Source: Candidatus Aminicenantes bacterium
Lineage (GTDB): Bacteria; Acidobacteriota; Aminicenantia; Aminicenantales; JAFGAV01
Direction: 5' to 3'
Assembly: GCA_963705895.1 (NCBI GenBank)
Contig: OY970122.1
Location: 2,914,774-2,978,773 of the forward strand
DNA: 64,000 bases
The translations under genes were made by a program, and so were the position numbers. Positions 9,504 through 53,157 of the stretch are shown here, in pieces. The notes under the pieces are model-generated. The model searched no databases. It was not told the DNA's origin and saw nothing but the letters and a program-made list of their open reading frames with translations. Each line of letters opens with the position of its first letter. Position 1 is the first letter of the stretch.

Positions 9504-11084
9504 TCAGGCGGGAGTTCTTGGGAGCTTCAGGGCCGGCTTCATCGCCGCCGAAGCCGCAGGATTCGGCGCGATGATGACCGTCACGGACGCCGAATTGTTG
9601 GACGCAACCAGGTCCAACTCGTTCAGGGCGCTCACGCTGGCCGTATTCTTTGCTTTTCCCGTGCTGACCGCCCTGACCGTGATCGTTAGGGTCGCCGCGG
9701 CGCCTTTGGCCAGGGAGCCGATACTCCAGACCCCGCTGCCCGGCTTATAAGTCCCCTGGGACGCGGACGACGAGACATAGCTCAGGCGCGCTGGAAGCCG
9801 GTCGGTGACCTTGAGGCCTGTGGCTGCATCCGGGCCCTTGTTCGTGGCGGTGATGGTGAAATTGAACTCATCGTCCTGCACGGGCGCGAGGTTATCGCTG
9901 GATTTGGAGACATCGATATTCGCCGCCGGTGGATTGAAGGAAAAGATCGTGCCGACACCCTGCGCCCCTCCTAGGTTTGTCATTCCATAGAGCATGGCTC
10001 CGCCGGACACCAGCGACCCCATCGGGGTATCCCCATCCGCTTCGTCGTAGCTGTCAAACGAATGAAGATAAACGGATCCCGTTCCGTCCGCATTGATCTT
10101 GAATATCGTCCCGCAAAGATGGGCGCCGCCGGAGCTGGTCATTCCGTACAACGTAGAACCGTTGAATATCAGTGAACCCTTCGGCAGATTTCCATGGAAG
10201 CCGCCGGCAAAAGAATAAAGTAGGCTGAATCCCGTGCCGTTTGTATTGATCTTAAATATCGTCCCATTGTCGCTCGCGCCTCCCATAAACGTCATTCCAT
10301 ACAAGGCAGAGCTGCTCGAAACCAGGGCGCCCAAGGGGCGGGATCCATCGGACGGGGCGCCGGCGAACGAATGAAGCACGCGGAATCCGGTGCCGTCCGT
10401 GTTGATCTTGAAGATCGTTCCGCCGTCGGAACCGCCGCCGAAGTAAGTCATTCCGTACATGGTCGAGCCACAGAGGACGAGCGATCCGTACGGCTTTTCC
10501 CCGTCGGCCGGGGCGCCGGCGAATGAATGAAGTACTAAGAATCCGGTGCCGTTCGTATCGATCTTAAATACCGTGCCGTCGCTGTTGGCGCCCGAGTCGG
10601 ACGTCATGCCGTATAAAGTCGCTCCGCTCACGATCAGAGAACCGAAAGGGTATCTTCCTTCGCCGGAGACTCCGGAGAAGGAGTGGAGGAGCCCGAATCC
10701 CGTGCCGTCCGTGTTGATCTTGAATATCGTCCCGGCGTCGGAACTGCCGCCAAGGCAAGTCATCCCGTACAGGGTCGAGCCTCTGAGGACGAGTGATCCG
10801 AGGGGAGTTTTTCCGTCGGAGGAGCCCCCGGCGAACGAATGGAGCAGGCGGAATCCCGTGCCGTCCGTATTGACCCGGAATATTGCGCCCATAGAGCTCC
10901 CTCCGCCTTTCGCGGTCATGCCGCAAAGGGTGGAACCGTCCAAAATGAGCGAGTCACAAGGATATGACCCGTCCAATGAAGCGCCGGCAAACGAATGGAG
11001 CAGCCTGAAATGCGCCGAAAAAAGCGGGGCGGCGAGGACGACCCCTAGGATCAAAGCCAGGCCGATCTTCCTTTTGTTGATCAT
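9504..11084 (-). CDS. Secreted tandem-repeat surface protein: signal peptide + 7x approx. 50-aa GloVer-like repeats + C-terminal DUF11 (conserved repeat domain)
   Basis: Start ATG at 11084 preceded by AGGGAGGGG. Signal peptide MINKRKIGLALILGVVLAAPLFSA. Seven repeats of the form F.LLHSFAG...DG..P.GSLV..GSTLYGMT..GG...GTIFKINTDGTG. C-terminal ...TITATNKGPDAATGLKVTD...NTASVSA.N..D.V.SNNSASV resembles DUF11. Confidence 0.85.
   Translation of the reverse strand: MINKRKIGLALILGVVLAAPLFSAHFRLLHSFAGASLDGSYPCDSLILDGSTLCGMTAKGGGSSMGAIFRVNTDGTGFRLLHSFAGGSSDGKTPLGSLVLRGSTLYGMTCLGGSSDAGTIFKINTDGTGFGLLHSFSGVSGEGRYPFGSLIVSGATLYGMTSDSGANSDGTVFKIDTNGTGFLVLHSFAGAPADGEKPYGSLVLCGSTMYGMTYFGGGSDGGTIFKINTDGTGFRVLHSFAGAPSDGSRPLGALVSSSSALYGMTFMGGASDNGTIFKINTNGTGFSLLYSFAGGFHGNLPKGSLIFNGSTLYGMTSSGGAHLCGTIFKINADGTGSVYLHSFDSYDEADGDTPMGSLVSGGAMLYGMTNLGGAQGVGTIFSFNPPAANIDVSKSSDNLAPVQDDEFNFTITATNKGPDAATGLKVTDRLPARLSYVSSSASQGTYKPGSGVWSIGSLAKGAAATLTITVRAVSTGKAKNTASVSALNELDLVASNNSASVTVIIAPNPAASAAMKPALKLPRTPA
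9915..11009 (-). repeat. Seven in-frame tandem approx. 150-bp coding repeats (GloVer-like) inside the surface-protein gene
   Basis: Periodicity read directly from the translated product. Confidence 0.7.
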
Positions 11085-11199
11085 TTTTTCCCCTCCCTGT
11101 GGATCAAGGGGAGCACGGTTCTCCACGTCGTCAAGAGCGGATTCACTTTCCCCTACAGAAAATAGTTGCAAAATTCGGGTCCTGTGTCAAGGAGCATGA

Positions 11200-11228
11200 T
11201 TGACATCCTGCGCGATATTCGCTTAAAA
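11200..11228 (+). promoter_or_regulatory. Sigma70-like promoter (TTGACA-N17-TTAAAA) upstream of the receiver gene
   Basis: TTGACA at 11200-11205, 17-nt spacer, TTAAAAT at 11223-11229, ATG at 11246. A minus-strand TTGACA at 11186-11191 suggests a divergent promoter for the surface-protein gene. Confidence 0.4.
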
Positions 11229-11245
11229 TCGAAGGCGCAGGGACA

Positions 11246-11713
11246 ATGGCCGTCAAAAAGATCCTGATCGTTGATTTCAACCCCCAAAGTCTGGAGGCTA
11301 TGGTCCAGCTTTTCAAGCCCTATAAATTCCAGATCATCAAGGCTTCGGACGGCGCTGAAGCCTATGAAAAGTTCAAAGAGGAAAATCCCGACCTCGTCAT
11401 CGTGGAAGCCATCCTGCCCAAGCTCGACGGGTTCCAGCTGACCGAGAAGATCACCCATGAGACCAAGGGCCGCATTCCCGTGATCATCGTCACCGGCGTT
11501 TATCGCGGGCCCCAGTATCGGCGCGAAGCCCTGGCCAGTTTCGGGGCGGCTGATTATTTTGAAAAGCCGTTCGACAAGGAAAAACTCATCAATTCCGCCC
11601 TCAACCTCCTCAAGGAGGAGTCCGAGATCTGGGTGGACCTTCCCAGCCCGGAATCGGTGGCCGAATTTTTACATCGTAAGCTGGAAAACCCGCCCAAGGC
11701 CAGCAAAAGCTAA
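11246..11713 (+). CDS. Single-domain response-regulator receiver (CheY-like) with Glu in place of the phospho-acceptor Asp (atypical/pseudo-receiver)
   Basis: KILIVDFNPQ...DLVIVEAILPKLDGF...VIIVTG...FEKPF. Aligned to CheY: D12 kept, D13->F, D57->E, T87 kept, K109 kept. Confidence 0.8.
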   Translation: MAVKKILIVDFNPQSLEAMVQLFKPYKFQIIKASDGAEAYEKFKEENPDLVIVEAILPKLDGFQLTEKITHETKGRIPVIIVTGVYRGPQYRREALASFGAADYFEKPFDKEKLINSALNLLKEESEIWVDLPSPESVAEFLHRKLENPPKASKS

Positions 11714-11723
11714 GCGGTTTGTG

Positions 11724-11766
11724 TTCCGGACCGGCCCGGGCCACGGGGTCCGGCGGTTTCGGGTTT
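11724..11766 (+). terminator. Possible GC-rich hairpin followed by a T-rich tract after the receiver gene
   Basis: CCGGACC...GGTCCGG stem with internal palindrome GGCCCGGGCC, followed by CGGTTTCGGGTTTG. Confidence 0.25.
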
Positions 11767-11838
11767 GACTTTTGCCGAAGAATGAGGGTAGCATGCGGCT
11801 GCCCTGAAATATCATTGAGCAAAGGAAGAAGGTCGAAA

Positions 11839-12642
11839 ATGGCTGATTCGGCTTTGTGGACGAGATGCAATCACTGCGGGAAGATCCTCTATGTCCAGGA
11901 CATCGTCGAAAACATCTCGGTCTGCCCCGCGTGCAACTTTCACTTCCGGCTGTCGGGGCTCGACCGGCTGGCCGCCCTGTTGGATGACGGCCATTACCAG
12001 CTCATCGATGAGAACATCTTTCCCGTGGACCGCTTGAATTTCGTGGACAGCATCAAGTACTCCCAGCGGCTTGAGGACAGCCAGAAGAAGACCGGGCTGG
12101 TCGAGGCCGTGATCAACGCCACGGGCAACATGGGCGGGATCGAGGTCATCATCTGCTCCATGGACTTCACTTTCATGGGGGGGAGCATGGGCTCGGTCGT
12201 GGGGGAGAAGATCACTCGGGCCATCGAGCGGGCCCATCAGGAAAAGAAACCCCTGCTCATCGTCTCCTGCTCGGGCGGGGCGCGGATGCAGGAGGGCGTC
12301 CTGTCGCTCATGCAGCTCCTCAAGACGAGCGCCGCTCTGGCCAAGCTCGACCGGGACGGCATCCCCTATATCTCGGTCCTGACCGACCCCACCACCGGCG
12401 GCACCACGGCCAGCTTTGCCATGCTGGGGGACATCAACGTGGCCGAGCCGAACGCTCTCATCGGTTTCGCCGGCCCGCGGGTCATCGAGCAGACGATCAA
12501 AGAAAAGCTGCCCAAGGGCTTTCAGCGCTCGGAGTTCCTCCTCAAACACGGCATGGTCGATGACGTCGTGGAGCGCAAGGTGCTTCGCCGGTATCTCATC
12601 CGGGCGCTCCGGCTGTTCCTTAACCGGCCTCCGGCCGCATGA
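11839..12642 (+). CDS. accD: Acetyl-CoA carboxylase carboxyltransferase beta subunit
   Basis: N-terminal Zn-ribbon CNHCGK...CPACNFH and carboxyltransferase core GGSMGSVVGEKI...CSGGARMQEG. ATG at 11839 with AAGGAAGAAGG upstream. Confidence 0.9.
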   Translation: MADSALWTRCNHCGKILYVQDIVENISVCPACNFHFRLSGLDRLAALLDDGHYQLIDENIFPVDRLNFVDSIKYSQRLEDSQKKTGLVEAVINATGNMGGIEVIICSMDFTFMGGSMGSVVGEKITRAIERAHQEKKPLLIVSCSGGARMQEGVLSLMQLLKTSAALAKLDRDGIPYISVLTDPTTGGTTASFAMLGDINVAEPNALIGFAGPRVIEQTIKEKLPKGFQRSEFLLKHGMVDDVVERKVLRRYLIRALRLFLNRPPAA

Positions 12643-15665: not shown

Positions 15666-16523
15666 TTAAAGATTGACCTTGAACCCGAGCGTGGCGGCCA
15701 CCCCCGTGAAATCAAAATGGCCCCGGCGGGCGTTCGAGATATCCGGATTCTTGGGCTCATAGGCCTGGAATGATGTCTGGGGGTAGGATTTTTCGCCCGC
15801 GACAAACTCGTAGTACCATAAGTACTGGCCCGGCACGCTCACGGAATAGGGCGATCCGAAAAATGACCCGCTGACATTTCCGTCGCCCTTGATGTTGTTT
15901 GCCCGTGCGTATCGGCCCCGCACGTCGAGGACGACCGCCAGTCGACGGCCGAGCGAGACTTCCACTCCCAATCCGCCTTGGAATCCGAGGACGGCCTTGT
16001 CGGCCGTGAAAAGGGAATCGAAGTTCCAGTCGAACTGCGTGGAGCTATAAAGATTCTCATAGCTGAAGTGGCAGAGATAAACGCCGGCGCCGGCGCCGAG
16101 GTTCAGCCTGACCGGACCCAGCGGAAAAAAATAATGAAGGTTGAGGGTCACGGGGACCGCGGAGAACCGCGGGTGGACGGTGAGAGTGTCATGGAATGTC
16201 GCCGCGGGGATCCTCCAATCATATTCGATGGTGCTCTTTTCGCTCGTCGAGAGATACCCGACGCCGATTCCCACGCTGAAACGGCGCGTGATGTCATAAC
16301 CGGCTTCGAATTGGAGTTCTAGGGCCCGGTCGAGCTTGGCCAGAACTCCGCTGACGTTCGTATAGAGGACGCGGAACAGGTCGTTCGAGCCCGGCACGCT
16401 TCGGTTATAGTCGCCTCCATTGATCGTGGCGACACCGCCTCCAGCCTTCAGCCAAAAGCTGCCGGGAAAGGCCGTGAGGGAACACGCCAGGCACAGGCTC
16501 GTCGTCAGTAGAAGTTTTCTCAT
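15666..16523 (-). CDS. Putative outer-membrane beta-barrel protein with signal peptide
   Basis: Signal MRKLLLTTSLCLACSLTAF followed by alternating amphipathic beta-strand pattern rich in G/Y/S. Confidence 0.55.
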   Translation of the reverse strand: MRKLLLTTSLCLACSLTAFPGSFWLKAGGGVATINGGDYNRSVPGSNDLFRVLYTNVSGVLAKLDRALELQFEAGYDITRRFSVGIGVGYLSTSEKSTIEYDWRIPAATFHDTLTVHPRFSAVPVTLNLHYFFPLGPVRLNLGAGAGVYLCHFSYENLYSSTQFDWNFDSLFTADKAVLGFQGGLGVEVSLGRRLAVVLDVRGRYARANNIKGDGNVSGSFFGSPYSVSVPGQYLWYYEFVAGEKSYPQTSFQAYEPKNPDISNARRGHFDFTGVAATLGFKVNL

Positions 16524-16675
16524 GAACTCTTCCTTTCCGGAACGAAATTTAACAGCGCGGGTTTATTTTGTCAACAAAGGGACGGAAGAGACCGCCGCCC
16601 GGCTTGCTTTTTCTTAGGAAAAATGACAAAATTTTCCTTCGAACTTGACCCGATCAGAATATCCGGGTTGAAAAC

Positions 16676-17092
16676 ATGCTGAACATTGATGCGACCTTTC
16701 TTGTCGTTTTCGTCATCATCTGGATCCTCGTCTTCGTGCTGAATAAGGTGTTTTTCAATCCCATGAAGAGGATCCGTGATGTGCGTCGGGGCGAGCTCGA
16801 CCGGAATCAAGGCACGGCCCGCCGGTCTCTCGAAGAATATGATCGAACTCTGGAGCGCCTGGAACAATCCCTTCGGGAAGCCCGGTCACAAGCGGACCGG
16901 ACGCGGGAGTCCCTGAGCGCCGAAGCCCTGAAGGAAAAGGCCAAGCTCTTGGAGGACCTTGGCGCCGAGTACCGGCGCAACGTGGAAAAAGCCAAGGAGG
17001 ACCTCCGGAGCGAACTGCAGGGCCTCAAGCGGGACATGGACTCTCAAGTGGAATCCCTCGCTCGAAAGATCGAGGAAAGGCTGGTCTCTTGA
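16676..17092 (+). CDS. F-type ATP synthase subunit b' (second b-type stator subunit)
   Basis: Single N-terminal TM then a long charged coiled-coil (EYDRTLERLEQSLREARSQADR...). Confidence 0.8.
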   Translation: MLNIDATFLVVFVIIWILVFVLNKVFFNPMKRIRDVRRGELDRNQGTARRSLEEYDRTLERLEQSLREARSQADRTRESLSAEALKEKAKLLEDLGAEYRRNVEKAKEDLRSELQGLKRDMDSQVESLARKIEERLVS

Positions 17093-23879: not shown

Positions 23880-25166
23880 ATGGCTCCCTCTTACGCGATC
23901 GACGTCGACCACGTCACCCGGGTCTATCAGAAGTACTCGGCCAAGCACCGCTTCCAGACTTTCAAGAGCGCCCTGGTCAAGGGCGACCTGTTCCGGTCGA
24001 TCCGCCCCGAGGAGCTGGTCACGGCCTTGGACAACGTCAGCCTCCGGGTCGAGAAGGGCAAGACCTTCGGCCTCATCGGCGAGAACGGATCGGGCAAGAG
24101 CACCCTCCTCAAGGTCGTGTCGGGCATCTCCAAACCCAGCTCGGGCGCGGTTAAGGTCCAGGGCAAGGTCTCGGCCCTGATCGAGCTTGGGGCGGGCTTT
24201 CACCCCGAGATCTCCGGCCGGGAAAACGTCTTCATCAACGGCATCATGCTCGGGTTATCCAAGAAGGAGATCAGCGATAAGTTCGACGAGATCGTCCGTT
24301 TCGCCGAGCTCGAGGACTTCATCGACGCGCCGGTCAAGACCTATTCCTCGGGCATGTACATGCGGCTGGGTTTCTCGGTGGCCATCAACGTCAACCCCGA
24401 CGTCCTGCTCATCGACGAGGTCCTGGCCGTGGGCGACGCCTCGTTCGTTCCCAAGTGCCTGGACCGGATCGACGACTTCCGGCGCCGGAAGAAGACGATC
24501 CTCTTCGTCAGTCACGACCTGGCCACGGTGGAAAAGATCTGCGACCGCGTGGTCTGGCTCAAGAACGGCCGGATCCAGGCTCTGGGCGAAGCCAAGCGGG
24601 TCATCGACCTCTACCTCCAGGATATCGCCGCCAAGAAAGAGGGTGAGTTCCGCAAGCGCCAGGAGGACGTGGACATCGATAATATCCCGGTCGGCGAAGG
24701 CCGCCGCGAGGCCCGCTGGGGCAAGCGCGAGGTCGAGATCACCCGGGTGGTGCTCAAGGACACGGCCGGCCGGCCGAAGCATGTCTTTTCGCCCGAGGAG
24801 GGAATGCTCATCGAGATGGAGGTCAAGGCCCCTAAGCCGCAGAAGGATTTCGTCTTCGGCATCGGCGTCTTCAACTCCCAGGGCACCTCCTGCTACGGAA
24901 CGAACACCCACCTCGAGGAATTCCGGCCGGTCCGGGTGGAGGGCGCGGGCAAGGTGGTCTGCCGGATCAAGAAGCTGAACCTGATCAACGGGACGTATTA
25001 TCTGGACATCGCCGTGCACAAGGTGGACGGGACACCCTACGACTATCTCCGGAACCTGTATTCCTTCCTGGTGGCCTCTCTGCACAAGGACGTGGGCATC
25101 GCCCGGCTGGACCATGCCTGGAAGTTCTCGTCCAGGATCGGGATCAAGCCCCCCAGGAAACGTTGA
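23880..25166 (+). CDS. wzt: O-polysaccharide ABC transporter ATP-binding protein (Wzt) with C-terminal carbohydrate-binding domain
   Basis: Walker [10 protein letters not shown], signature [11 protein letters not shown], Walker [12 protein letters not shown], plus an approx. 170-aa C-terminal beta-rich extension. Sits in the frame of the long ORF 23085..25166, with the real ATG at 23880. Confidence 0.9.
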
Positions 25167-25696
25167 TCGAAAGTATCATGGCCCGCTCGAGGGAAGACGT
25201 GGCAAAGAAGAAGATCGGAAACAGGAAGATTTATTCCCTGGCCCGACTTCTCAAGGTCCGCCGCACGCTGAGGGCCCAAGGAAAAAAGGTCGTCTTCACC
25301 AACGGCTGTTTCGACCTTCTTCACGCCGGCCACATCAGGCTCTTTCGCGAGGCCAAGGCGCGGGGCGACGTCCTCATCGTGGCCCTGAACGAGGACGCTT
25401 CGATCCGAAGGCTCAAAGGTCCGGCGCGTCCCATTTTTCCGCTGGCCGAGCGGCTTGAGGTCTTGTCGGCCATCGGCGATGTCGATTATGTGACATGGTT
25501 CGGCGAGGATACCCCCCAAAAGATCATCGCCGCTCTCCTGCCAGATGTCCTGGTCAAGGGAGGGGACTGGACGCCGGAAACGGTCGTCGGCCGGTCCGAG
25601 GTCGAAGCCGCCGGGGGCAAGGTCATCATCATCCCCACGCTCAAGGGAAGCTCGACGACCGGCATCATCGACAGGATGCGGAAGGTTTGTTTGTAA
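25163..25696 (+). CDS. hldC: D-glycero-beta-D-manno-heptose-1-phosphate adenylyltransferase (stand-alone HldE domain II / RfaE2)
   Basis: [16 protein letters not shown]...[16 protein letters not shown]...[22 protein letters not shown] aligns closely with E. coli HldE domain II. Confidence 0.9.
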
Positions 25697-26379
25697 CCAG
25701 TAGGTCGAGGGTTCAAATACCAAACCAGCGGGGAGGCGACGAACCGGGCGCAAACCCTCCTGAAAAATGCGGTCGACGCGGTCCGCTCTCAAATCCCCCC
25801 CGGGTTTGAACTTGGACGATGAGGGCGACGGCTAGGTGGACAACGTTTGCTTCATAGGGGAAGGCGCCTGGGACAATTGGAGCGACCTGCTTTGGCCGCA
25901 CATGTGGGTTCTTTATACAAAAGCAGCCTACATCAATGGCAAAAAGGTTTGTCTTGTGAATGCCGCCATCGGCCCGCAATTCGACTCGATGGCGCCGGCC
26001 GCACCAGGGGATTTTGCCGGTCTTGCTAGCCCAAGGGGCTTGAGGAATCGGGCGAGTGGCTGCGGGAGGCGAATGGGGGCGGGGCAGACGGAGCGGGTAT
26101 CTTCCCCCCATATCGACGACTCACGGTTGACGGAGGTCTTCGCCCGGGAGGTCCTGGCGATGCTTGTCCGCCGCACATCCGACCGACCACCCTCCCTCAC
26201 CGAGCCTGAACCGGCATATTAAAGTCATTTTGCGGCGGCCGCAAGGATTAGACAAGATCCTGAACCGCCATCCCCGGACCCAGCCCGGGGACCAAAAAAA
26301 CTGCAAGAATCTGAATCACTCAGGCAGTACGGTTCTTTGAGACGAAGTCAAAAGCCGACGGCTCGGAGCTCCCGGTCGG

Positions 26380-27276
26380 TCACCGATTCGGGCGGAGGCG
26401 CCAGGCCTTGAACAGGATGTTGACCACTTTCCACTGATCGTCAAAAAAAGCCAGCTGAAAATAACTGGTGCTTGAAGGCGCATCCCCCGCCACAAAGGCC
26501 AGACCGTCCATCACGTCGAGCACACGAACCTCGTACTTGCGTTGATCGTCGGGAGGAAGACCTTGTTTGTCCTGGGTCATTTCAGCCAGCTGGCCCGGCC
26601 CTGTCCTTAAGATAATGGTCTTGCCCGTCTGTGGAATGCGGAAAACCTGGGCCGGCCTGACCTCCGGATGAACGGCTTTCTCCAGACGAGCGACGTCCCC
26701 GCCAAACCGGCCTTCGTAATAATCACGGGCTGTGGCCTTGATCACATCCCGTTCCTTTTCGAGGTCGAATTCGGGCGGCGCCATGCGGTTCATCGAGTCC
26801 GGGCCGTAGGTCCAAAGCACATTGACGATCTTCCACTGCCCATCGAAGTTGACCATGTTCAGATAATCATCGAACAAGGCCGAAGTCAGCTTGACGCAGG
26901 CCATGTCGTCCTTGACTTCAAGGACAGTGACCTTGAGCTTACGCTCACTCTCGTCGGGACGACCGATCTCGATTCGGCAATTCTCAACCATCTCCGAGAA
27001 GGATGAATAGTTGAGGACGATTTTGCCGGTCCTGATGAACAGGAACGGAGCGACCTTATTCAGGTCGGGGTGAAGAGACCGTTCCATGCGGGCTGCGTCC
27101 CCCGTGTAGAATCCTTCGCCGTAATCGAGAGCGGTCTTGATGATCCCCTGCTTATCCGTATTAGGAGCCGGGGCAGAGGTCGGGGCCGTTTGAGCTAAAA
27201 GCAGCACGGCCGCAGGGAGCACGGCCATGAAGATCGTGGTCAGCTTGCGCACCATTTCTTTCTCCTTTCTTCCCAT
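26380..27276 (-). CDS. Secreted protein with two tandem NTF2-like (putative lumazine-binding-like) domains
   Basis: Signal peptide, then an internally duplicated module of about 130 aa (DYGEGFYTGDAARMERSLHPDL...W / DYYEGRFGGDVARLEKAVHPEV...W). Confidence 0.6.
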   Translation of the reverse strand: MGRKEKEMVRKLTTIFMAVLPAAVLLLAQTAPTSAPAPNTDKQGIIKTALDYGEGFYTGDAARMERSLHPDLNKVAPFLFIRTGKIVLNYSSFSEMVENCRIEIGRPDESERKLKVTVLEVKDDMACVKLTSALFDDYLNMVNFDGQWKIVNVLWTYGPDSMNRMAPPEFDLEKERDVIKATARDYYEGRFGGDVARLEKAVHPEVRPAQVFRIPQTGKTIILRTGPGQLAEMTQDKQGLPPDDQRKYEVRVLDVMDGLAFVAGDAPSSTSYFQLAFFDDQWKVVNILFKAWRLRPNR

Positions 27277-27488
27277 AATATACCTTAGAACCAGGCCGAT
27301 GCTTATAACAGTTTTTTTGTGGGGAGTTGTGGCGTATTTTTTATGGTGGAATGCCTGTTTTGAAAAACCGTATGGCCTTAATCTGTCAGGGAATAATTGT
27401 CAAGACAACAATGACATGATGGCAAGAAAACAGCCGGTCGACCCATCCCATAGATTGTTTATATGAATGCGGGGAGAATTTATATCCG

Positions 27489-27857
27489 TCAACGCCCAAA
27501 AAGCATGAGATGATATGTTCCGACCTCGAAGAAGAGGCTAAATTTGCAGGATAGAGAAAACCTCTCCGCCTGAAAGCAATTGCCCCTATCCGAAGGGGAA
27601 GGCCCGACCGAAAATCTCTTGAAACTTGCCTCGGCGTATTGGTGGGTTATTATGACCGCTTTTAAATAAGCCCCCTCGTCGCCATAAAACGTGACATGCC
27701 AAACATCATTCGGATTTATTCTTGTGTCCGAGGGAATCCAGGAATATTTCGTCCAGGATGTGTTGAAGACTGTAGGAAAAGCGATTGTCTGATTTTTAGA
27801 GATGATGGGCTTGCGGCACCCGTCCTCGGGGACAGGACGACAGCGTATTGTTATCAA
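27489..27857 (-). pseudogene. Degenerate partial paralog of the C-terminal half of the 27920..28516 gene (tandem partial duplication)
   Basis: Motif WIPSDTRINPNDVWHVTFYGDEGAYLKAVIIT matches TTPSDTTIYPKDTWYLTACLYTGAKFYGAVVT. The 3' flanking DNA is also duplicated (27588-27657 versus 27875-27940). TTG start. Confidence 0.35.
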
Positions 27858-27919
27858 AATGCAGACCCCCCATTCAGAAGGGGAGGTCCGCCCCGAAAGC
27901 TTTTAGAACCTGCGCCGAT

Positions 27920-28516
27920 TTACTTGTAAGTGACTACGGCTCCATAAAACTTTGCTCCCGTATAGAGGCAGGCCGTGAGATACCAAGTATCCTTCGGATA
28001 GATGGTCGTGTCTGAAGGAGTCGTGATGTAATCCATTATGAGGGAACCATAGTTGCTTGACCAAAAGTCTACTATCTTGTAACTATAATCAACAGGGAAA
28101 TACTTATCGAACATTCTGCACCACGCTGAAGATCCCATGAAGTCCGTTATGATCCATTCCACTTTAACGATAGTCTTTGCACCTTTCGGGAAAATGACGG
28201 GGGCACAAAGGCAGGGAAAATAGGCATCACTGCCGGTAATACCGCCATATACGAAAAAATTGAAAAAGCCGGTAGCGCCGCCATCCCACGTAAACGCGGC
28301 CGCGGGGATATTAATCGTTTTTTGTATCCCTTTTGCCGGCGACCGCGCCATATCTGCGGAGGCCAATTGCGCGACGACCGTGCCTACGGCAACTTGGTTG
28401 CTCTTGTCCGAATTTAGCGTCCGCTCGGCGGCAAGGGCCGCCTGCGGCAGAAAATAACCCGCCACGACCACGACCGCAATCGTCGCCAAAACGATTGCCC
28501 ATCCTCTTTTGTTCAT
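27920..28516 (-). CDS. Secreted hypothetical protein (lower-GC islet)
   Basis: ATG at 28516 preceded by AAGGAGAGG. Signal MNKRGWAIVLATIAVVVVAGYFLPQAALA. Aromatic-rich beta-type sequence. Confidence 0.6.
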   Translation of the reverse strand: MNKRGWAIVLATIAVVVVAGYFLPQAALAAERTLNSDKSNQVAVGTVVAQLASADMARSPAKGIQKTINIPAAAFTWDGGATGFFNFFVYGGITGSDAYFPCLCAPVIFPKGAKTIVKVEWIITDFMGSSAWCRMFDKYFPVDYSYKIVDFWSSNYGSLIMDYITTPSDTTIYPKDTWYLTACLYTGAKFYGAVVTYK

Positions 28517-28650
28517 GGTATCCTCTCCTTTCTCCTTTGGCGGCCATAAAAACGTCCACACCTCATTCGAGATTTAGATATTTTTATTATGACCCCCCTT
28601 CCCATAACATAAAAAGCTTTTGTTGTTTTGTCAAGCGAATAAATCATGTT

Positions 28651-29288
28651 ATGCCCCATCTCATTTGTTATCTCCGAGGCGGGGATCCAGCAACTCATAA
28701 CCGCGCCGGCGCCTCGATTGCGGCCAACCCTCTTGCCGGCCTTCGGGACAGGGCTTCCGGGGGCGATATCCTTGGGCTCAAGTGGACTGACGTTGACCTG
28801 GACCACGGCATCATAACCCTATTCATGCAAAAGACCGGCGATTCAATTGAGATCCCCACGCTCCCGATGGTCAGCGAATTGCTATCGCACATGAAGCGAG
28901 TTGCCGGCAAGTCCGCCTATATTTTTACGAACCCCAAAACGGGAGAGAAAGGCTAGGCAGCATTAAAACGGCGTTCAGGCGGGCGCTGGAACGCTCCAAG
29001 CTGGATGACAAAGGCTATCGCTTCCAGGACATTCGGCGGACGCTTGCTACCATGCTTCACAATCGGGGCGTCAGCCTGATTAAGATTCAGCGACTGCTTA
29101 GCCATAAATCGGTCCTGACCACGGAACGATATCTTGGGGTCAAATTTGAGGAAACCCGGCAAGCGGTCATGCTGCTTGCTTCCGTGCTAGGGCCGGCCGA
29201 GTGCACAGTAAGTGCACAGTTAGCCCCCGCTCCGCCTTCAAACCCTTTATTATCAGAGGCATCACAAGCCAGAGAAAACCCTTCGTAA
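28651..29288 (+). pseudogene. Tyrosine recombinase/phage integrase remnant: 5'-truncated catalytic domain with an internal +/-1 frameshift near 28940-28956
   Basis: Frame 1 reads ...LAGLRDRASGGDILGLKWTDVDLDHGIITLFMQKTGDSIEIPTLP...SAYIFTNPKTGEKG*. Frame 0 continues ...LGSIKTAFRRALERSKLDDKGYRFQDIRRTLATMLHNRGVSLIKIQRLLSHKSVLTTERYLGV (box II with R and Y). No integrase N-terminal domain lies upstream. Confidence 0.6.
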
Positions 29289-29397
29289 GCACCGAACTCG
29301 TGTCCCTCTTTGTTGGGGGCATCCATAGAGTTGCACATATGTTTTGGGGCATAATCGCCTCTCCTCAGCCTCTATGTCGGAAGGGAGAACGCATGGG

Positions 29398-30040
29398 TCA
29401 GAAAGCCGTCTTGATCTTTCTCCTGCCCAAATAGAGGAGGCCGCCGAGAAGGAGGCCGATGACTCCCACCGTAATCGATCGCCAGGGGATGAAAACCAGA
29501 AGCGCCAGACATATTGCCAGGCCCGCGGCGGGCACCGCCTTGGGATGGGGGACTGCCTTCAGGCCAAGCCGAAGCGCCGAACCGTTGGCAAGTGCATAAC
29601 AGATAAGGGGAGCAAAAGCACTGATTGCCACTACTCCCAAGAGCGGCATGAGCACCGCTGCCACGGCAATCAATCCCCCCCTGAATAACACGACAAGCGT
29701 CGGTGTGTCGTGCTTGGGATGAACCGTAGCCAGGACATGCGGCAGCTCCCTGGGTTGGGCCATGGCGAAGGACATACGTGACACGCCGAGGATGGAGGTC
29801 AGAAGCACGCTGGCCGTAGCCACAAGGCCGCCCGAGGAGACGATATAAACAAGAATGACGATGTTGGCGGCGATGAGGATCGACAGGACCAGGGCTGGCC
29901 CGGCCAAGCCGGCCACGATCCCGGTGACGACATAGATTCCGCCCGCGATGATCGCCCCCAGCCCGATGGCCGTTGCATCGAGCGGGTTCAGGGCCGGCTT
30001 GAATATTCGTCTTGCAGCCTTATCCCCGCCGCGGGCCGAA
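29398..30040 (-). pseudogene. APC-family amino-acid permease remnant with internal deletion (TM1-2 fused to TM10-12)
   Basis: In-frame upstream of the GTG at 29916 is ...KPALNPLDATAIGLGAIIAGGIYVVTGIVAGLAGPALVLSIL (an APC N-terminus). Joined directly to ...SRMSFAMAQPRELPHVLATVHPKHDTPTL...LYLGRRKIK (an APC C-terminus). Too short for a 12-TM permease. Confidence 0.5.
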
Positions 30041-30180
30041 GGTCGTTTGTTTTCACGTCGGTCCTTAGGAAGCGAGGAATGATGACTTCCTCCATCCCCT
30101 GCGCTATTGCATCACGAGGAAAGGGCGGCCAAAGCTGTTCGAAAGTCCTTCGAGTCTTGTTTCCCGGATTCTAAAAAAGT

Positions 30181-30879
30181 ATGATGATTGATTATAAGGT
30201 CATGATCCGTTTAGTGAACGTCTCGAGGCAATACGGCTGGGGAGAGCAAGCCACCCACGCCCTGCGGGAGGTGAGCATCGAGGTCCCTGACGGGGCCTTC
30301 GTCAAGGTCGTGGGCACTTCCGGCTCGGGCAAGACGACGCTGCTCAATATCATCGGCGGCCTGGACACCGAGTATTCCGGGACGGCTGAGGTGGCCGGCC
30401 TGAACCTCAGAGATAGGACTGACAGGGAGCTCAGCCGTTTCCGCAACCGGACGGTCGGTTTTGTCTTTCAGCATTTTCATCTGCTCGACCACCTGGATGC
30501 CCTCCAGAACGTCGGCCTGGCTGCGTTCTTTTCCGATGCGGACGTCCGCCGGATCGCGGAGCGCGCCGAGGAAGCCCTGGTCCGGGTGGGATTGGGTGAT
30601 AAGCTTCATCAACGGCCGGGGCAGCTGTCCGGGGGCCAGAAGCAGAGGGTGGCCATCGCCCGGGCCCTCTTCAACCGGCCGCGCCTGATCCTGGCCGACG
30701 AGCCCACGGGCAACCTGGACACGCGGACCGGGGCGCAGGTCATCGACCTTTTCCAATCCCTCAACCGCGAAGACGGGCTGACCATCGTGGCCGTGACTCA
30801 CGAGGACCAGCTTTTCCGTCTGGCCCAGCGGGCCGTCCGTCTCGAGGACGGCCGGATCGTGGAGGACAGCGTCCGATGA
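30181..30879 (+). CDS. ABC transporter ATP-binding protein (MacB/LolD/FtsE-type)
   Basis: [36 protein letters not shown]. Confidence 0.9.
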
Positions 30880-32231
30880 AGCCCCGCAGCCTGCGCCGGC
30901 TCATTCTCCAGAACATCGGACGGAACCGGGCCAATTTCGTTTTTTCCGGGATCGGGATCGTGGCCGGTATCTCGAGTTTCATCTTTTTTATCGCCCTGGG
31001 CGGAGGGATCAAGCGAGTCGTTTCCCGGGAGATCTTTCCCGTGGAGGCCGGACGCATTCAGGTCGTGCCCGCGGCGGCGCAGTTCGAATCCTGGATGCGC
31101 GGACGGAAGATTGACGACGACACCCTGGACCGGCTGGCTGGAATTCCCGGGGTGACCGCGGTCTACCCCCGGATGAAGCTGACCGTGCCGGCGACGATGA
31201 CCCTCCTCGGCATCCGGATTCCGAGTGAGGATTTGATTCGCCTGACCAGGATGCCGGGCGTTACGCCGGACATGGTTTTGGCGGTCAAGAAACTCCAGGT
31301 CTGGATGGAGATCATGGCCGACGGCATCGACCCCCGCCTGGTGAAGGGCGACGCCGTATTCGGCCCATTCGCCGATCAACCGCCCGGCCAGCCGATTCCC
31401 GTTCTGCTCTCCAAGAGGCTCGTCGAAATCTACAACTCGAGCTTCGCCAAGTCACGTTCCCTGCCGCCGATCAGCGAAATCCTCATCCCCTACATCCCCC
31501 GCTTGCCCTTGACGCTGAACGATTCCTACATCACCCGGGACATGACCGGCCCCAAGGTCGAGTCTGCGGTCAAGATCGTCGGCACGAGCGCCTATGCTCT
31601 TCTCGGGGGGGTGACCATGCCGCTCGACACGGTCCGGCGCCTGAACCGGCAATTTGCCGGGGAAGCCGCGGCCCATGCTTACGATATGGCCGTGCTCGAG
31701 GTGCCCGCCTCGGACAAGCTGACTCCTGTCCAGGAGGCGGTGCGCGGACTGGGCCTCGACATCGACATGAGCCAGAAGCGCATGGCCGAGAGCGTGGCTT
31801 TCGCCGTGACGCTGGTGACGCTTGGCTTCAGCCTCCTCAGCCTGGCCATGGTGGCCGTGGCCGCGGTCAACATCGCCCACACATTCTTCATGATCATCTA
31901 TGAACGAAAACGCGAGATCGGGCTGATGAGGGCCCTGGGGGCGTCGCGGCGCGACATCCGCTCCCTGATCCTAGGGGAGGCGGGGCTGGTGGGTGCCGCC
32001 GGGGGGCTGGCGGGCCTCATCCTGGGCGTGGTGTTGTGCCTGGGGGTAAACGTCCTGGCCGTCCGCCTGCTTCCTGACTTTCCGTTCAAGCCCCGGAAGT
32101 TTTTCAGCTATCCGGCCTGGCTCTTCGCGAGCGGGCTCGTCCTGGCCGTCTGCTTTTGCCTGGCCGGCGCGTTTTCCCCGGCCCGCCGCGCCGCCAGGAT
32201 GGACCCGGCCGGTACGCTGTCGGGCCGCTGA
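30876..32231 (+). CDS. ABC transporter permease, FtsX/MacB-like (4 TM with a large periplasmic loop)
   Basis: N-terminal TM, an approx. 250-aa periplasmic domain, C-terminal three-TM FtsX domain. ATGA overlap with the ATPase gene. Confidence 0.9.
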   Translation: MKPRSLRRLILQNIGRNRANFVFSGIGIVAGISSFIFFIALGGGIKRVVSREIFPVEAGRIQVVPAAAQFESWMRGRKIDDDTLDRLAGIPGVTAVYPRMKLTVPATMTLLGIRIPSEDLIRLTRMPGVTPDMVLAVKKLQVWMEIMADGIDPRLVKGDAVFGPFADQPPGQPIPVLLSKRLVEIYNSSFAKSRSLPPISEILIPYIPRLPLTLNDSYITRDMTGPKVESAVKIVGTSAYALLGGVTMPLDTVRRLNRQFAGEAAAHAYDMAVLEVPASDKLTPVQEAVRGLGLDIDMSQKRMAESVAFAVTLVTLGFSLLSLAMVAVAAVNIAHTFFMIIYERKREIGLMRALGASRRDIRSLILGEAGLVGAAGGLAGLILGVVLCLGVNVLAVRLLPDFPFKPRKFFSYPAWLFASGLVLAVCFCLAGAFSPARRAARMDPAGTLSGR

Positions 32232-50310: not shown

Positions 50311-51105
50311 ATGAGGGACAAGTCCTACGCAACGATCCGAGTGTCGCGGGAAGGACAGACAGTCGGCCTTTGGCTGAACCGGCCCGAGGTGCACAACGCC
50401 TTCAACGCGCTGATGATTCGCGAGTTGCGGGACGCTCTCCGGATCATCAGGACCGACACGTCGGCGCGCGTCGTTATCCTCTCGGGACAAGGGGCTTCCT
50501 TTTGCGCCGGCGCCGACCTGAACTGGATGCGCGAAATCATACGTTTTTCCTACGAACAAAACCTTCAGGAATCCCTGGACCTGGCCGGATTCCTTTACGA
50601 GCTTTATAACCTGCCCAAGCCGACCGTCGCCCGCGTCAACGGCGCGGCCATCGGCGGCGGCGCAGGATTCGTCGCCGCGTGCGATATCGTCGTGGCTTCG
50701 TCCGAGGCCAAGTTCGGCCTGAGCGAGGTGAAGATCGGTCTGGTACCCGCCTGCATCGCGCCCTATGTCCTGCGGAAGATGGGAGAGGGGTGGTGCCGCC
50801 AGTATTTCCTGACGGGCGAGCGTTTCGATGCCAAGCGAGGCCGGGACATCGGACTGGTTCACATCGTGGCCAAGCCCGCGGAACTGGACAGCCGGATCGA
50901 GGAGCTCATCGGCCGCCTCCTGACGTCGGGGCCTGAAGCCATGGCCAAGGCCAAAGAGCTGCTGGGGCGCGTTCCGGGCATGAGCTTCAAGGAGGCTCAG
51001 CGCTTCACGGCCGAGATGATCGCCGGGCTGAGGACAAGCCCGGAGGGGCAGGAAGGCATGGCCGCTTTCCTTGAGAAACGAAAACCGAAATGGGTCAAGG
51101 ATTAG
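50311..51105 (+). CDS. Enoyl-CoA hydratase family (methylglutaconyl-CoA hydratase/LiuC-like)
   Basis: Crotonase motifs ...ASFCAGADL...GGG. Confidence 0.85.
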   Translation: MRDKSYATIRVSREGQTVGLWLNRPEVHNAFNALMIRELRDALRIIRTDTSARVVILSGQGASFCAGADLNWMREIIRFSYEQNLQESLDLAGFLYELYNLPKPTVARVNGAAIGGGAGFVAACDIVVASSEAKFGLSEVKIGLVPACIAPYVLRKMGEGWCRQYFLTGERFDAKRGRDIGLVHIVAKPAELDSRIEELIGRLLTSGPEAMAKAKELLGRVPGMSFKEAQRFTAEMIAGLRTSPEGQEGMAAFLEKRKPKWVKD

Positions 51106-51134
51106 AGAGATTGCAGGTGCCCAAAGAGAGGTCG

Positions 51135-52661
51135 ATGTTCCAGAAGATCCTAGTCGCCAACAGGGGTGAGATCGCGGTCCGCGTCATCCGGGCTTGTCGC
51201 GAGATGGGGATCGTCCCGGTCGCCGTCTATTCCGAGTCGGACCTGACAAGCCTGCACGTCCAACTGGCCGACGAAGCCGTCCTCCTCGGTCCGGCCCCGG
51301 CAGCGGACAGTTATCTCCACATGGACCGGATCATTCAAGCCGCCAGGCAGACCGGCGCCGAAGCCATCCACCCGGGTTACGGGTTTCTGGCCGAGAACTC
51401 CGACTTCGCCCGGCGATGCGAGAACGAGGGATTGGTCTTCATCGGGCCGAACTCACGGGCCCTGGCGCTTGTAGGCGACAAGGTCCGGGCCCGTCAGACC
51501 ATGGAAGCGGCGGGGGTGCCGATCATTCCCGGGATGATGTCCATTCCCCAGACCGTGTCGGAGTTTAAGAAGGAAGCTCGTCGGCTCGGCTATCCGGTGA
51601 TCGTCAAAGCCTCGGCGGGCGGCGGCGGCAAGGGGATGCGCGTTGTCCAAAGCGAAAAGGACCTGGAGCCAGCAGTCGAGGCCGGGAGGCGCGAGGCCAA
51701 GTCCGCCTTCGGAGACGAATCGGTCTATCTTGAAAAGTATATCGAGGAACCGCGGCATGTCGAGTTCCAGGTCCTGGCCGACTGTCACGGCCGGATGGTC
51801 CATCTCTTTGAGCGCGAATGCTCGATCCAGAGACGCCACCAGAAGCTTATCGAGGAAACTCCCTCCCCCGCCCTCGACCTGGAATTGAGGGCGAAAATGG
51901 GAGAGACGGCCAAGAAGGTCATGGCTGCGGCGGGCTATACGAACGCCGGGACGGTCGAGTTTCTCTTGGACAAAGAGCGTCGCTTCTACTTCCTCGAGGT
52001 GAACGCGAGGCTCCAGGTGGAGCATCCCGTGACCGAGTTCGTTACAGGCGTGGACCTGGTCCGTCAGCAGATCCTTATCGCCGCGGGAGAGCCACTGGCC
52101 TTCGGGCAGGAAGACATCCATCAGCGCGGCCATGCCATCGAATGCCGGATCTATGCTGAGGACGCCGCTCATGGCTTCCTCCCGTCCTCGGGCAAAATCC
52201 TGTTTCTCAAGGAGCCGAAAGGTCCCGGAGTCCGCCTCGACAGCGGGATTTTCGCGGGCTGGGAGGTGCCGGTCTACTATGACCCGATTCTGGCTAAGCT
52301 CATTGTCTGGGCCGAAAGCCGGGATCAGGCCTGCAGGAGGATGGCCGTCGCCTTGCAGGAGTACGTCATCCTGGGCATCCATACCACCATAGAATATTTG
52401 CGGGATGTCGTCCGCCATCCGGAATTCCGGGCCGGACGGCTGCATACGGGGTTCTTAGAAAAGAATTTTAAAGGCTGGGGAGAGAACAGCAAAGATGAGG
52501 CCGCGACGCGGTTGGCCTTGGCGGCCGCGGCTTTCGAAGAGATGGGCCGGCCCGCGCGGGCCGGGGACGGTGCGTCGCAGACCAAGCGCAGCGACTCTCT
52601 GTCTCCTTGGCAATCGCTGGGCCGCTGGAGGCTCGGAGGGCTGGATTCACATGGAATTTGA
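51135..52661 (+). CDS. Biotin carboxylase subunit of an acyl-CoA carboxylase (no fused BCCP domain)
   Basis: ATP-grasp motifs KASAGGGGKGMR and ...EMNARLQVEHPVTE. Confidence 0.9.
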   Translation: MFQKILVANRGEIAVRVIRACREMGIVPVAVYSESDLTSLHVQLADEAVLLGPAPAADSYLHMDRIIQAARQTGAEAIHPGYGFLAENSDFARRCENEGLVFIGPNSRALALVGDKVRARQTMEAAGVPIIPGMMSIPQTVSEFKKEARRLGYPVIVKASAGGGGKGMRVVQSEKDLEPAVEAGRREAKSAFGDESVYLEKYIEEPRHVEFQVLADCHGRMVHLFERECSIQRRHQKLIEETPSPALDLELRAKMGETAKKVMAAAGYTNAGTVEFLLDKERRFYFLEVNARLQVEHPVTEFVTGVDLVRQQILIAAGEPLAFGQEDIHQRGHAIECRIYAEDAAHGFLPSSGKILFLKEPKGPGVRLDSGIFAGWEVPVYYDPILAKLIVWAESRDQACRRMAVALQEYVILGIHTTIEYLRDVVRHPEFRAGRLHTGFLEKNFKGWGENSKDEAATRLALAAAAFEEMGRPARAGDGASQTKRSDSLSPWQSLGRWRLGGLDSHGI

Positions 52662-53157
52662 ATTCGTTGTGGACGGAAGCCGGCGGACCATCACTTTGGA
52701 CAAAAAAGACGATGTATTCATCATCCGAGATGGAGACCAGACCCAGGAGGTCGACATCCGGAGAATCTCTCCGTGCGAGCTCCTGGTGCGCAGGGGAGGG
52801 CACTCGGAGATAGTCTACATCGCCCGCGAGGGTGATCGCAGGTTCGTCTCCGCCGGAGGCCACTATTACGGCGTCTCGGATCCCGCTCAGGATTCGGGGC
52901 GCTATTCCGGCGGTGACGAAAGGACGCCGGAAGGGGGCACCTGCATCAAGGCGCCCATGCCGGGAAGAGTCATCAAGCTGAACGTCGTTGAAGGCGAAGA
53001 GGTGAAGAAGTATCAATCTCTGTTGATCGTCGAGGCCATGAAGATGGAAAACGACATCCGTTCGGCCGCGGACGGCGTGGTCAAGAAAATCCATGTTGTG
53101 GCCGGAGAGCTCGTGGACTCCGAAAAGACTCTCATCGAACTCGGACCGAAAACCTAG
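52651..53157 (+). CDS. Biotin carboxyl carrier protein (stand-alone BCCP)
   Basis: Biotinylation motif EAMKMEN. 11-bp overlap with the biotin carboxylase gene. Confidence 0.85.
   Translation: MEFEFVVDGSRRTITLDKKDDVFIIRDGDQTQEVDIRRISPCELLVRRGGHSEIVYIAREGDRRFVSAGGHYYGVSDPAQDSGRYSGGDERTPEGGTCIKAPMPGRVIKLNVVEGEEVKKYQSLLIVEAMKMENDIRSAADGVVKKIHVVAGELVDSEKTLIELGPKT

Follow-up and report, generated by a model that had tools for sequence, protein, structure and literature searches.

A decaying patch with an AT-rich core, an integrase pseudogene and the relic of an accB-type locus between hldC and an ABC transporter gene pair in an Aminicenantes-like chromosome

What history leaves gene fragments, a stretch without recognisable genes, intact genes for exported proteins and a deep drop in GC content side by side in one short chromosomal interval? 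The question is raised by positions 25697-30180 of a 64,000-nucleotide stretch of a Candidatus Aminicenantes genome (contig OY970122.1; the whole stretch is called the window below), located at the end of a polysaccharide/heptose cluster, between hldC and an ABC operon. An earlier description, made from the letters of the window (the original prediction), had seen there the scar of an old integrated element in reductive decay. Our analysis indicates that genes have indeed decayed in this interval of an Aminicenantes-like chromosome, and that it can no longer have any mobile function. The core of the interval (27256-29397), which is AT-rich, most likely represents the scar left by a segment that would have arrived together with a phage-type tyrosine integrase. 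The reading that we prefer, with a probability of about 0.5, is an integrase-associated insertion that carried genes of one exported-protein family and captured accB-flanking DNA, and that was followed by deletions in a decaying neighbourhood.

The segment 27289-27773 (minus strand) overlaps a stretch (27489-27857) that had been taken for a decaying tandem duplication of the 3' half and downstream flank of the neighbouring gene at 27920-28516, which encodes an exported protein, P0001. Apparently two further full-length members of the P0001 family, P0002 and P0004 (92% identical to each other, each ~51% identical to P0001), are encoded in the same genome outside the window, and a Logan contig (L093) has the gene of another member, P0125 (82% identical to P0002), between ffh and accB-accC. 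Window positions 27326-27768 aligned with positions 1430-1879 of L093 with 73% identity over 453 nt (E 3e-69 in the pairwise comparison; 1.6e-49 when searched against the whole window), and the order is collinear: the last ~45 codons of the family gene, the stop codon, a terminator hairpin, an intergenic region with a TTGACA box, and the first codons of accB. The first part (27636-27773, minus strand; tblastn and family hidden Markov model (HMM)) is a pseudogene of the last ~45-47 codons of a P0002-type paralog, whose 5' ~150 codons were lost and whose stop codon TAA was changed to TAC (27638-27636). The second (27345-27635, minus strand; alignment to L093) is a relic of the intergenic region behind P0002-type genes, and holds a decayed terminator hairpin (27583-27598) and the TTGACA box (27403-27398), which precedes accB in L093. 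This intergenic relic occurs once in the window, and none of the other loci compared contains it; its hairpin folds no better than shuffled sequences (z +0.5), and the counterpart in L093 has a 13-bp G+C stem and then UUUUCUCU. The third (27289-27344, minus strand) is what is left of the 5' end of accB, the gene for the biotin carboxyl carrier protein; it aligned with positions 1861-1961 of L093, where a PF00364 gene starts and accC comes next. Here the start codon ATG became ATA (27344-27342) and ~46 nt were deleted inside; past this deletion, a 12/12 match (CATCGGCCTGGT, 27290-27301) corresponds to accB codons ~30-33. As read from the alignment, the collinearity proves that DNA of what would be another type of locus was placed at 27289-27773. 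The accB-bearing relic is a marker of the movement of a DNA segment, either inside an Aminicenantes-like genome or into it from elsewhere.

In sequence, P0002, P0004 and P0125 are all closer to the relic than the adjacent P0001 is. By tblastn, the identity of the relic was 53% to P0002, 57% to P0004 and 36% to P0001 (over 36 residues); its open reading frame (ORF) matched positions 152-200 of the 200 in the family HMM (E 5e-9), with a faint, non-significant family similarity in 27774-27857. These results bear on the simplest form of the original prediction, namely a single foreign, low-GC island with exported proteins as cargo, the NTF2-like protein described below included, in which the 3' half of 27920-28516 was recently duplicated in place. 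Such an island would account for the GC dip, for the integrase relic and for the gapless similarity (59% at the DNA level) that links the ends of the two genes, terminators included, and that is limited to the last ~49 codons and the terminator. However, over the same 150 nt the DNA of the relic is 77% identical to L093 and 59% identical to the neighbouring P0001 gene, and the relic includes ~350 nt of intergenic and accB sequence without counterpart beside the P0001 gene. Thus, the relic is a fossil of a P0002-type locus and not a copy of its neighbour, and the proposed local duplication is contradicted. With the GC dip being a trait of the family and the NTF2-like gene having near-host codons and relatives in unrelated, integrase-free contexts (see below), we consider the single foreign island improbable.

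Note that the window has a biotin carboxylase-like gene of its own (51090-52661, 65% identical to the N-terminus of the accC product of L093) and, ~270 nt downstream of it, a Biotin_lipoyl-like segment (52924-53118); 51090-53118 probably represents a paralogous carboxylase and would not be the accBC operon that gave rise to the relic.

The integrase pseudogene (28735-29288, plus strand) was delimited by three-frame translation and profile comparison, and retains the part of the catalytic domain that begins with the Arg-I region and ends at the C-terminus. Similarity starts near 28735 (AGLRD...GGDILGLKW), runs in one frame to a TAG at 28954-28956, and resumes in another frame at ~28953 (LGSIKTAF...RFQDIRRT...LLSHKS...TERY) as far as the stop codon at 29286-29288; one frameshift lies between 28939 and 28955. 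At the N-terminus ~90-210 residues are absent, so that the pseudogene has no core-binding domain and has lost the beginning of the catalytic domain. No integrase similarity was found upstream of ~28735, where the pseudogene directly adjoins the divergent P0001 gene with no room for an integrase 5' half. An integrase deprived of its N-terminal half and frameshifted had been predicted, and this is what the alignments give, with a start at about residue 138 of 292 in XerA and a change of frame after 28939. The joined product (166 residues) aligned with residues 138-274 of the 292 in XerA (4a8e, E 1.8e-7) and with 213-342 of the 356 in lambda Int. The frameshift-corrected sequence matched phrog_1 (E 3.4e-25) and phrog_216 (E 2.1e-23, from position 91 of 301); matches were also obtained with NF040815 (XerA; positions 130-261 of 263, E 9.4e-15) and with the XerC profile from position 147 of 295. 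In plasmids, 222 records matched, with 32-34% identity among the matches listed. The first piece alone matched PF00589 at positions 39-99 of 172 with 20.7 bits, under the cut-off of 27.1.

The catalytic motifs were placed according to what we take to be the pattern of the family. His-I is replaced by Gln (RFQDIRRT, 29019-29042), Arg-II, His-II (LLSHKS) and Tyr (TERY) are kept, and the Arg-I region (GLRDRASGGDIL) has extra residues compared with lambda Int. As for PF00589, the pseudogene thus has the similarity to the catalytic domain, and has neither the full Arg-Lys-His-Arg-His/Trp-Tyr set nor an intact frame. An integron was considered and rejected: TIGR02249 gave 23.6 bits (cut-off, 265) over profile positions 242-301 only, and there is no IntI extra domain. 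The spacing from the beta-hairpin Lys to H-x-x-R is short, which we take to be canonical, presumably in distinction from IntI1. The hairpins behind the family genes were likewise rejected as attC sites; they are intrinsic terminators with U-tracts, and one of them recurs in the housekeeping locus L093.

Proteins of the interval are on record for a single contig of 3,311,678 nt, and the source is therefore probably the genome, closed or nearly so, of an uncultured Aminicenantes-like bacterium. The mean GC content of the window is 61%. The 1-kb sliding windows outside 25697-30180 had a mean GC content of 0.615 (sd 0.024; minimum, 0.547), and the lowest value, 0.454 (z -6.8), was found at 27251-28250; the nine lowest values of the 64 kb all fell within 26.5-29.5 kb. 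The GC drop at ~27.3-29.4 kb seen in the original prediction is therefore real, and the GC and codon-usage scan that it had suggested gave a non-uniform profile. The next-lowest values were at 11001-12000 (0.547) and 15751-16750 (0.554). A coarse scan for stretches lacking ORFs with host-like coding also flagged real genes of lower GC3, and was given little weight. The compositionally deviant core is 27256-29397 alone (2.1 kb, GC 0.498, non-host codon usage). ORFs in the rest of the window had a mean GC at third codon positions (GC3) of 0.75 and a mean codon adaptation index (CAI) of 0.68 (clear genes, mostly 0.75-0.85 and ~0.70). The P0001 gene had a GC of 0.50, a GC3 of 0.57 and a CAI of 0.49, and the second piece of the integrase had a GC3 of 0.57. 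The permease relic to the right of the core (GC 0.606, CAI 0.555) and the 683-nt gap beside hldC (GC 0.597) are host-like in GC, and the NTF2-like gene (GC 0.566, GC3 0.70, CAI 0.63) is at the low end of the host range. Thus, none of these three needs to belong to an element.

Since many of the features described here are lesions, a chimeric join or similar assembly or binning artefact in a metagenome-derived genome could in principle mimic them, the lineage being uncultured and long-read assemblies being prone to indel errors. However, Logan contig L001 (run ERR10755944) corresponds to window positions 26972-30708 with one mismatch and no gaps over 3,737 nt, the sole difference being at position 28833 (G vs A), inside the integrase pseudogene. 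The lesions are reproduced without indels and are thus not local assembly errors, and we give the artefact hardly any credence. Note that L001 leaves the left junction (25697-26971) uncovered, and that the run is possibly from the same sample.

How much of the patch goes back to one event was judged from composition, adjacency and the contexts of the P0001 family elsewhere. The integrase relic and the promoter region of the P0001 gene abut inside one AT-rich block, which supports the insertion. The alternative is that several events met at a recombination-tolerant spot, where an integrase element, a copy of the family/accB DNA and a dying permease decayed independently, and that there was no single island. 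The mosaic composition, with a host-like gap and permease on either side of the AT-rich core, fits this alternative, as do the family genes being ordinary chromosomal genes elsewhere and the failure to find attachment (att) sites. On the other hand, the integrase and family genes are adjacent in one AT-rich block, and multiple insertions within 2 kb are less economical, an argument that is not decisive. We rank independent events next after the insertion, as a rather unlikely account.

Several observations weigh against the integrase-associated insertion that we prefer. A search for att direct repeats gave only chance-like repeats of 14-23 nt, and the 64 kb contain no tRNA or tmRNA gene; Rfam gave no match at the gathering threshold. 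A related genome with an empty site was not found; the syntenic contigs (L013, L014 and L070) stop 70-660 nt past hldC, and the relatives found with FtsX are only 57-68% identical. Elsewhere, family genes were seen in four unrelated housekeeping contexts, among them ffh/accBC (L093), after an M28 peptidase gene (L095 and L103) and between IDH and Nramp (L100-L102), where the 2.7-20 kb visible around them contained no integrase, and IMG/VR viral contigs yielded no relative of the family. Moreover, most family genes are 5-10 GC points under their flanks (L093, L095, L100 and L103; 0.52 vs 0.61, 0.53 vs 0.62 and 0.59 vs 0.69), with the deficit deepest in the 3' half. As this deficit recurs in housekeeping contexts, low GC is a property of the family and not proof of recent import. 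The family genes could have been in place for a long time, with an integrase beside them that has nothing to do with them. The link between the integrase and the family genes is one of adjacency only.

Accordingly, the scar proposed in the original prediction stands as far as the pseudogene cluster and the phage-type integrase relic are concerned; its argument from GC is insecure and no att sites were found. The dip and odd codons are present, but as a sign of foreign origin they lose force when most family genes in L093, L095, L100 and L103 are also GC-poorer than their flanks. The lesson is that a GC dip and an integrase fragment over-suggest a foreign island, much of the dip here being an AT-rich gene family. 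The GC deficit of the family could be due to ancient transfer, to low expression or to an amino-acid composition with many Y, F, I, K, N and T residues. In L095 (3089-3703 and 4407-5018) and L096, two family members lie ~700 nt apart; between the pair of L095, an RF-1-domain (ArfB-like) gene is on the opposite strand, and a multi-copy habit seems to be familial. A Peptidase_M28/M20 gene precedes the family gene in L095 (91-1320) and L103 (5019-6248), a hint that the neighbourhood is conserved within one branch of the family; a small Trans_reg_C (OmpR-type DNA-binding domain) gene lies before the family gene in L100-L102.

What the data show are lesions, homologies and composition. For the integrase-associated insertion, we infer from them the following order of events, with a single insertion and a role of the integrase in it. 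The incoming segment would have carried two tandem genes of the jelly-roll family to which P0001 belongs, the intergenic region and the start of accB. The segment includes DNA that elsewhere follows the second family gene, so that it may have come from a locus of the ffh/family gene/accB-accC type, as in L093, by imprecise excision or illegitimate recombination. The 3' end of the permease pseudogene, 109 nt from the 3' end of the integrase, is a plausible former attachment point, and is suggestive only. Later, the integrase would have lost its N-terminal half by deletion and its remainder would have been frameshifted, the second family gene would have been stripped of its 5' three-quarters and have had its stop codon changed, and of accB only the first ~100 nt would have been left, with the start codon destroyed. 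Independently of these changes, the resident permease would have lost its start codon and transmembrane segments (TM) 3-7, and the 683 nt beside hldC would have lost recognisable coding. The functions that survive would be the expression of P0001, which has its own promoter-like site and terminator, and that of the tandem NTF2-like protein.

The patch shares with degenerate islets and cryptic prophage remnants an integrase relic at the edge of a deviant block, pseudogenes, surviving genes for exported proteins and the want of remaining mobility functions. It differs from them in having no att repeats or tRNA target, in that ~2 kb is left, in the chromosomal nature of its low-GC family and in the captured chromosomal piece. 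This last feature, a chromosomal block (family gene, intergenic region and accB start) beside an integrase, resembles a capture of the specialised-transduction type; such a mechanism is inferred from the arrangement, there being no element ends, excisionase or phage genes, and illegitimate recombination fits equally well. A bolder version, which we think doubtful, would make the jelly-roll proteins an undescribed, multi-copy, fast-diverging family for extracytoplasmic glycan or surface binding, whose copies, in this lineage, spread from one chromosomal locus to another with flanking DNA by integrase-mediated capture; the relic would then be a fossil of such a transfer, and the accB promoter might aid the expression of the NTF2-like gene.

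P0001 itself (27920-28516, minus strand; 198 amino acids) is encoded by an intact gene, in which the original prediction had also seen a gene for a secreted protein. The family profile is matched end to end, all family motifs are present, and the N-terminus looks like a signal peptide by inspection. The intactness of this gene and of the NTF2-like gene is at odds with the statement that every element of the interval is damaged or odd. The 3' flank (27858-27919, minus strand) has an intrinsic terminator, in which a stem-loop (27885-27866) is followed by AUUUUG (-22.2 kcal/mol, z -2.75), and which is the positional homolog of the decayed hairpin in the relic. The AT-rich region upstream (28517-28734), where the 5' part of the integrase would be, has a GC of 0.416 in 28517-28689, and a promoter scan gave a minus-strand site in it that resembles a promoter (TTGACA-17-TATGTT, 28634-28606; 10 of 12 matches).

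A word-index search of 5.8 billion proteins with P0001 gave three relatives, and a word-index profile search for the family gave six matches on short contigs; the exhaustive profile search of 1.84 billion cluster representatives gave 162 at E<=1e-3. The members are mostly ~200 amino acids long and have the motifs IPAAAF..DG, GGY.G, CL.APV.FPKGAK.I and YG..V.Y. None of the 38 aligned members had a match in Pfam, and P0001 itself had none in NCBIfam, PHROG or PADLOC. The AlphaFold2 model built with the 38-sequence alignment (pLDDT 85, pTM 0.73; an earlier model from three sequences, with a pLDDT of 58, was not used) has residues ~63-198 as a jelly-roll beta-sandwich of ~135 amino acids. Foldseek matched the model to carbohydrate-binding modules (CBM29, CBM6, CBM35, CBM86 and BT0996-C), to Cry11 and to Eph ligand-binding domains with E ~1e-3, target TM-scores of 0.4-0.63 and identities of 6-16%. 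P0001 would thus share the beta-sandwich fold with the carbohydrate-binding modules, with domain III of Cry toxins and with the Eph domain. It differs from the modules in lacking membership of their sequence families and in that its signal peptide is followed by this one domain, with no enzyme attached; to judge from the model, the likeness is a resemblance of fold and not family membership. The predicted fold suggests extracytoplasmic binding of glycans or surfaces. For this family the fold is predicted with confidence and no sequence model exists, and it could receive an entry as a new domain of unknown function; this unannotated CBM-like exported family and the accB-bearing fossil are the mildly novel parts of the locus.

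The APC-superfamily amino-acid permease pseudogene (29398-30012, minus strand; PF00324 positions 276-423 of 470, GkApcT and TIGR00909) is open from 30012 to 29398, with no ATG, GTG or TTG upstream of the GTG at 29916. It aligned with residues 26-71 and 305-450 of the 461 in GkApcT (6f34) and with positions 277-427 of the 429 in TIGR00909, and has an in-frame internal deletion of ~233 residues with a junction near 29827-29865. With the segments numbered by what we take to be the topology of GkApcT, TM1, part of TM2 and ~TM8-12 are kept, and TM3-7 and parts of TM2 and TM8 are lost. The original prediction, in which TM1-2 and TM10-12 were retained, holds for TM1, part of TM2 and the internal deletion; the other end extends over ~TM8-12. 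The similarity to transporters of the GkApcT/BcaP/TIGR00909 type covers TM1-2 and TM8-12, and the 12-TM core of the APC fold (5+5 inverted repeat) is not present.

That the fragments are alive, with a seven-helix permease remnant, a C-terminal integrase piece or the 122-residue product of the ORF at 27489-27857 having been domesticated, might be argued from the ORFs that gene callers predict and from the deletion in the permease being in frame. However, the permease has no start codon and has lost the TM3-7 core of the LeuT fold; the integrase is without its DNA-binding half, is frameshifted and has Gln for His; the 122-residue ORF owes its existence to the lost stop codon and reads through the former terminator; and codon adaptation is poor (0.42-0.59). 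We find such domestication very unlikely. The pieces 27489-27857, 28651-28956, 29052-29288 and 29398-29916 should be annotated as pseudogenes and not as hypothetical proteins; beyond annotation the locus has little importance, and nothing in it is mechanistically new.

At the left end of the patch, a non-coding stretch of 680 bp had been predicted, and 683 nt (25697-26379) are indeed without a recognisable gene or RNA. Its ORFs of 128-132 amino acids had no match in Pfam, PHROG or PADLOC, Rfam gave no match even at E<=1, and low-stringency tblastn and tblastx against the compared metagenomic loci gave noise alone; other small ORFs also had no match in Pfam, PHROG or PADLOC. The adjoining gene (26380-27255, minus strand) is intact and encodes a protein of 291 amino acids with two PF12893 (Lumazine_bd_2) stretches (92.8 bits; gathering threshold, 22.1) and, as judged by eye, probably a signal peptide, in line with the secreted tandem-NTF2 protein of the original prediction; the gene call on L001 gives the same start, 27255. 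There are 138 homologs, the nearest 57-59% identical, and the tandem form of 280-300 amino acids occurs in ~80 metagenomic homologs. The homologs share with the window protein the two domains behind a signal peptide, and differ in their neighbourhoods; the nearest adjoin beta-lactamase-family and methyltransferase genes, with no synteny to the window and no integrase. Some (P0063, P0067, P0068, P0070-P0074 and P0076) have a C-terminal redoxin/AhpC-TSA fusion, which is absent here and which hints at a periplasmic redox-related role for the tandem PF12893 architecture. The idea that the secreted proteins were cargo of the element is mostly contradicted for the NTF2-like protein, with its near-host codons, and is insecure for P0001, given the GC trait and the integrase-free contexts of its family.

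The NTF2-like gene has an upstream sequence of its own of only ~34 nt (27256-27289). Farther out, ~110-150 nt ahead of the gene, now lies the sequence that once preceded accB, including the TTGACA box (27396-27425), an arrangement that may represent promoter capture. The -10-like hexamer of the captured region is without the final T found in L093.

The left border of the patch is hldC (D-glycero-beta-D-manno-heptose 1-phosphate adenylyltransferase; 25163-25696, plus strand; TIGR02199 and PF01467), which passes the TIGR02199 equivalog cut-off (189.4 vs 181.5 bits) and closes a conserved cluster in a block that includes a Wzt-type ABC ATPase. Window positions 18.2-25.7 kb are syntenic with the metagenomic contig L014 (59-87% amino-acid identity). 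When metagenomes were scanned for synteny from hldC, three (L013, L014 and L070) of 80 loci were syntenic. The right border is an intact pair of genes for a MacB/LolCDE-type ABC ATPase and an FtsX permease (30181-32231, plus strand; PF00005, PF02687 and PF12704), the nearest relatives of which are in metagenome-assembled genomes (MAGs) of Candidatus Aminicenantes (64-74% amino-acid identity) and the next-nearest in those of Myxococcota (57-70%). In an FtsX-based scan of genome contigs, no synteny beyond the pair was found in the relatives L002-L010, from Aminicenantes and Myxococcota MAGs. The end of the L014 synteny at hldC and the conservation of the ABC genes as a pair alone, even across phyla, are also consistent with independent events at a recombination-tolerant spot. 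The pair appears to be an isolated two-gene module, which suggests movement or retention independent of its surroundings.

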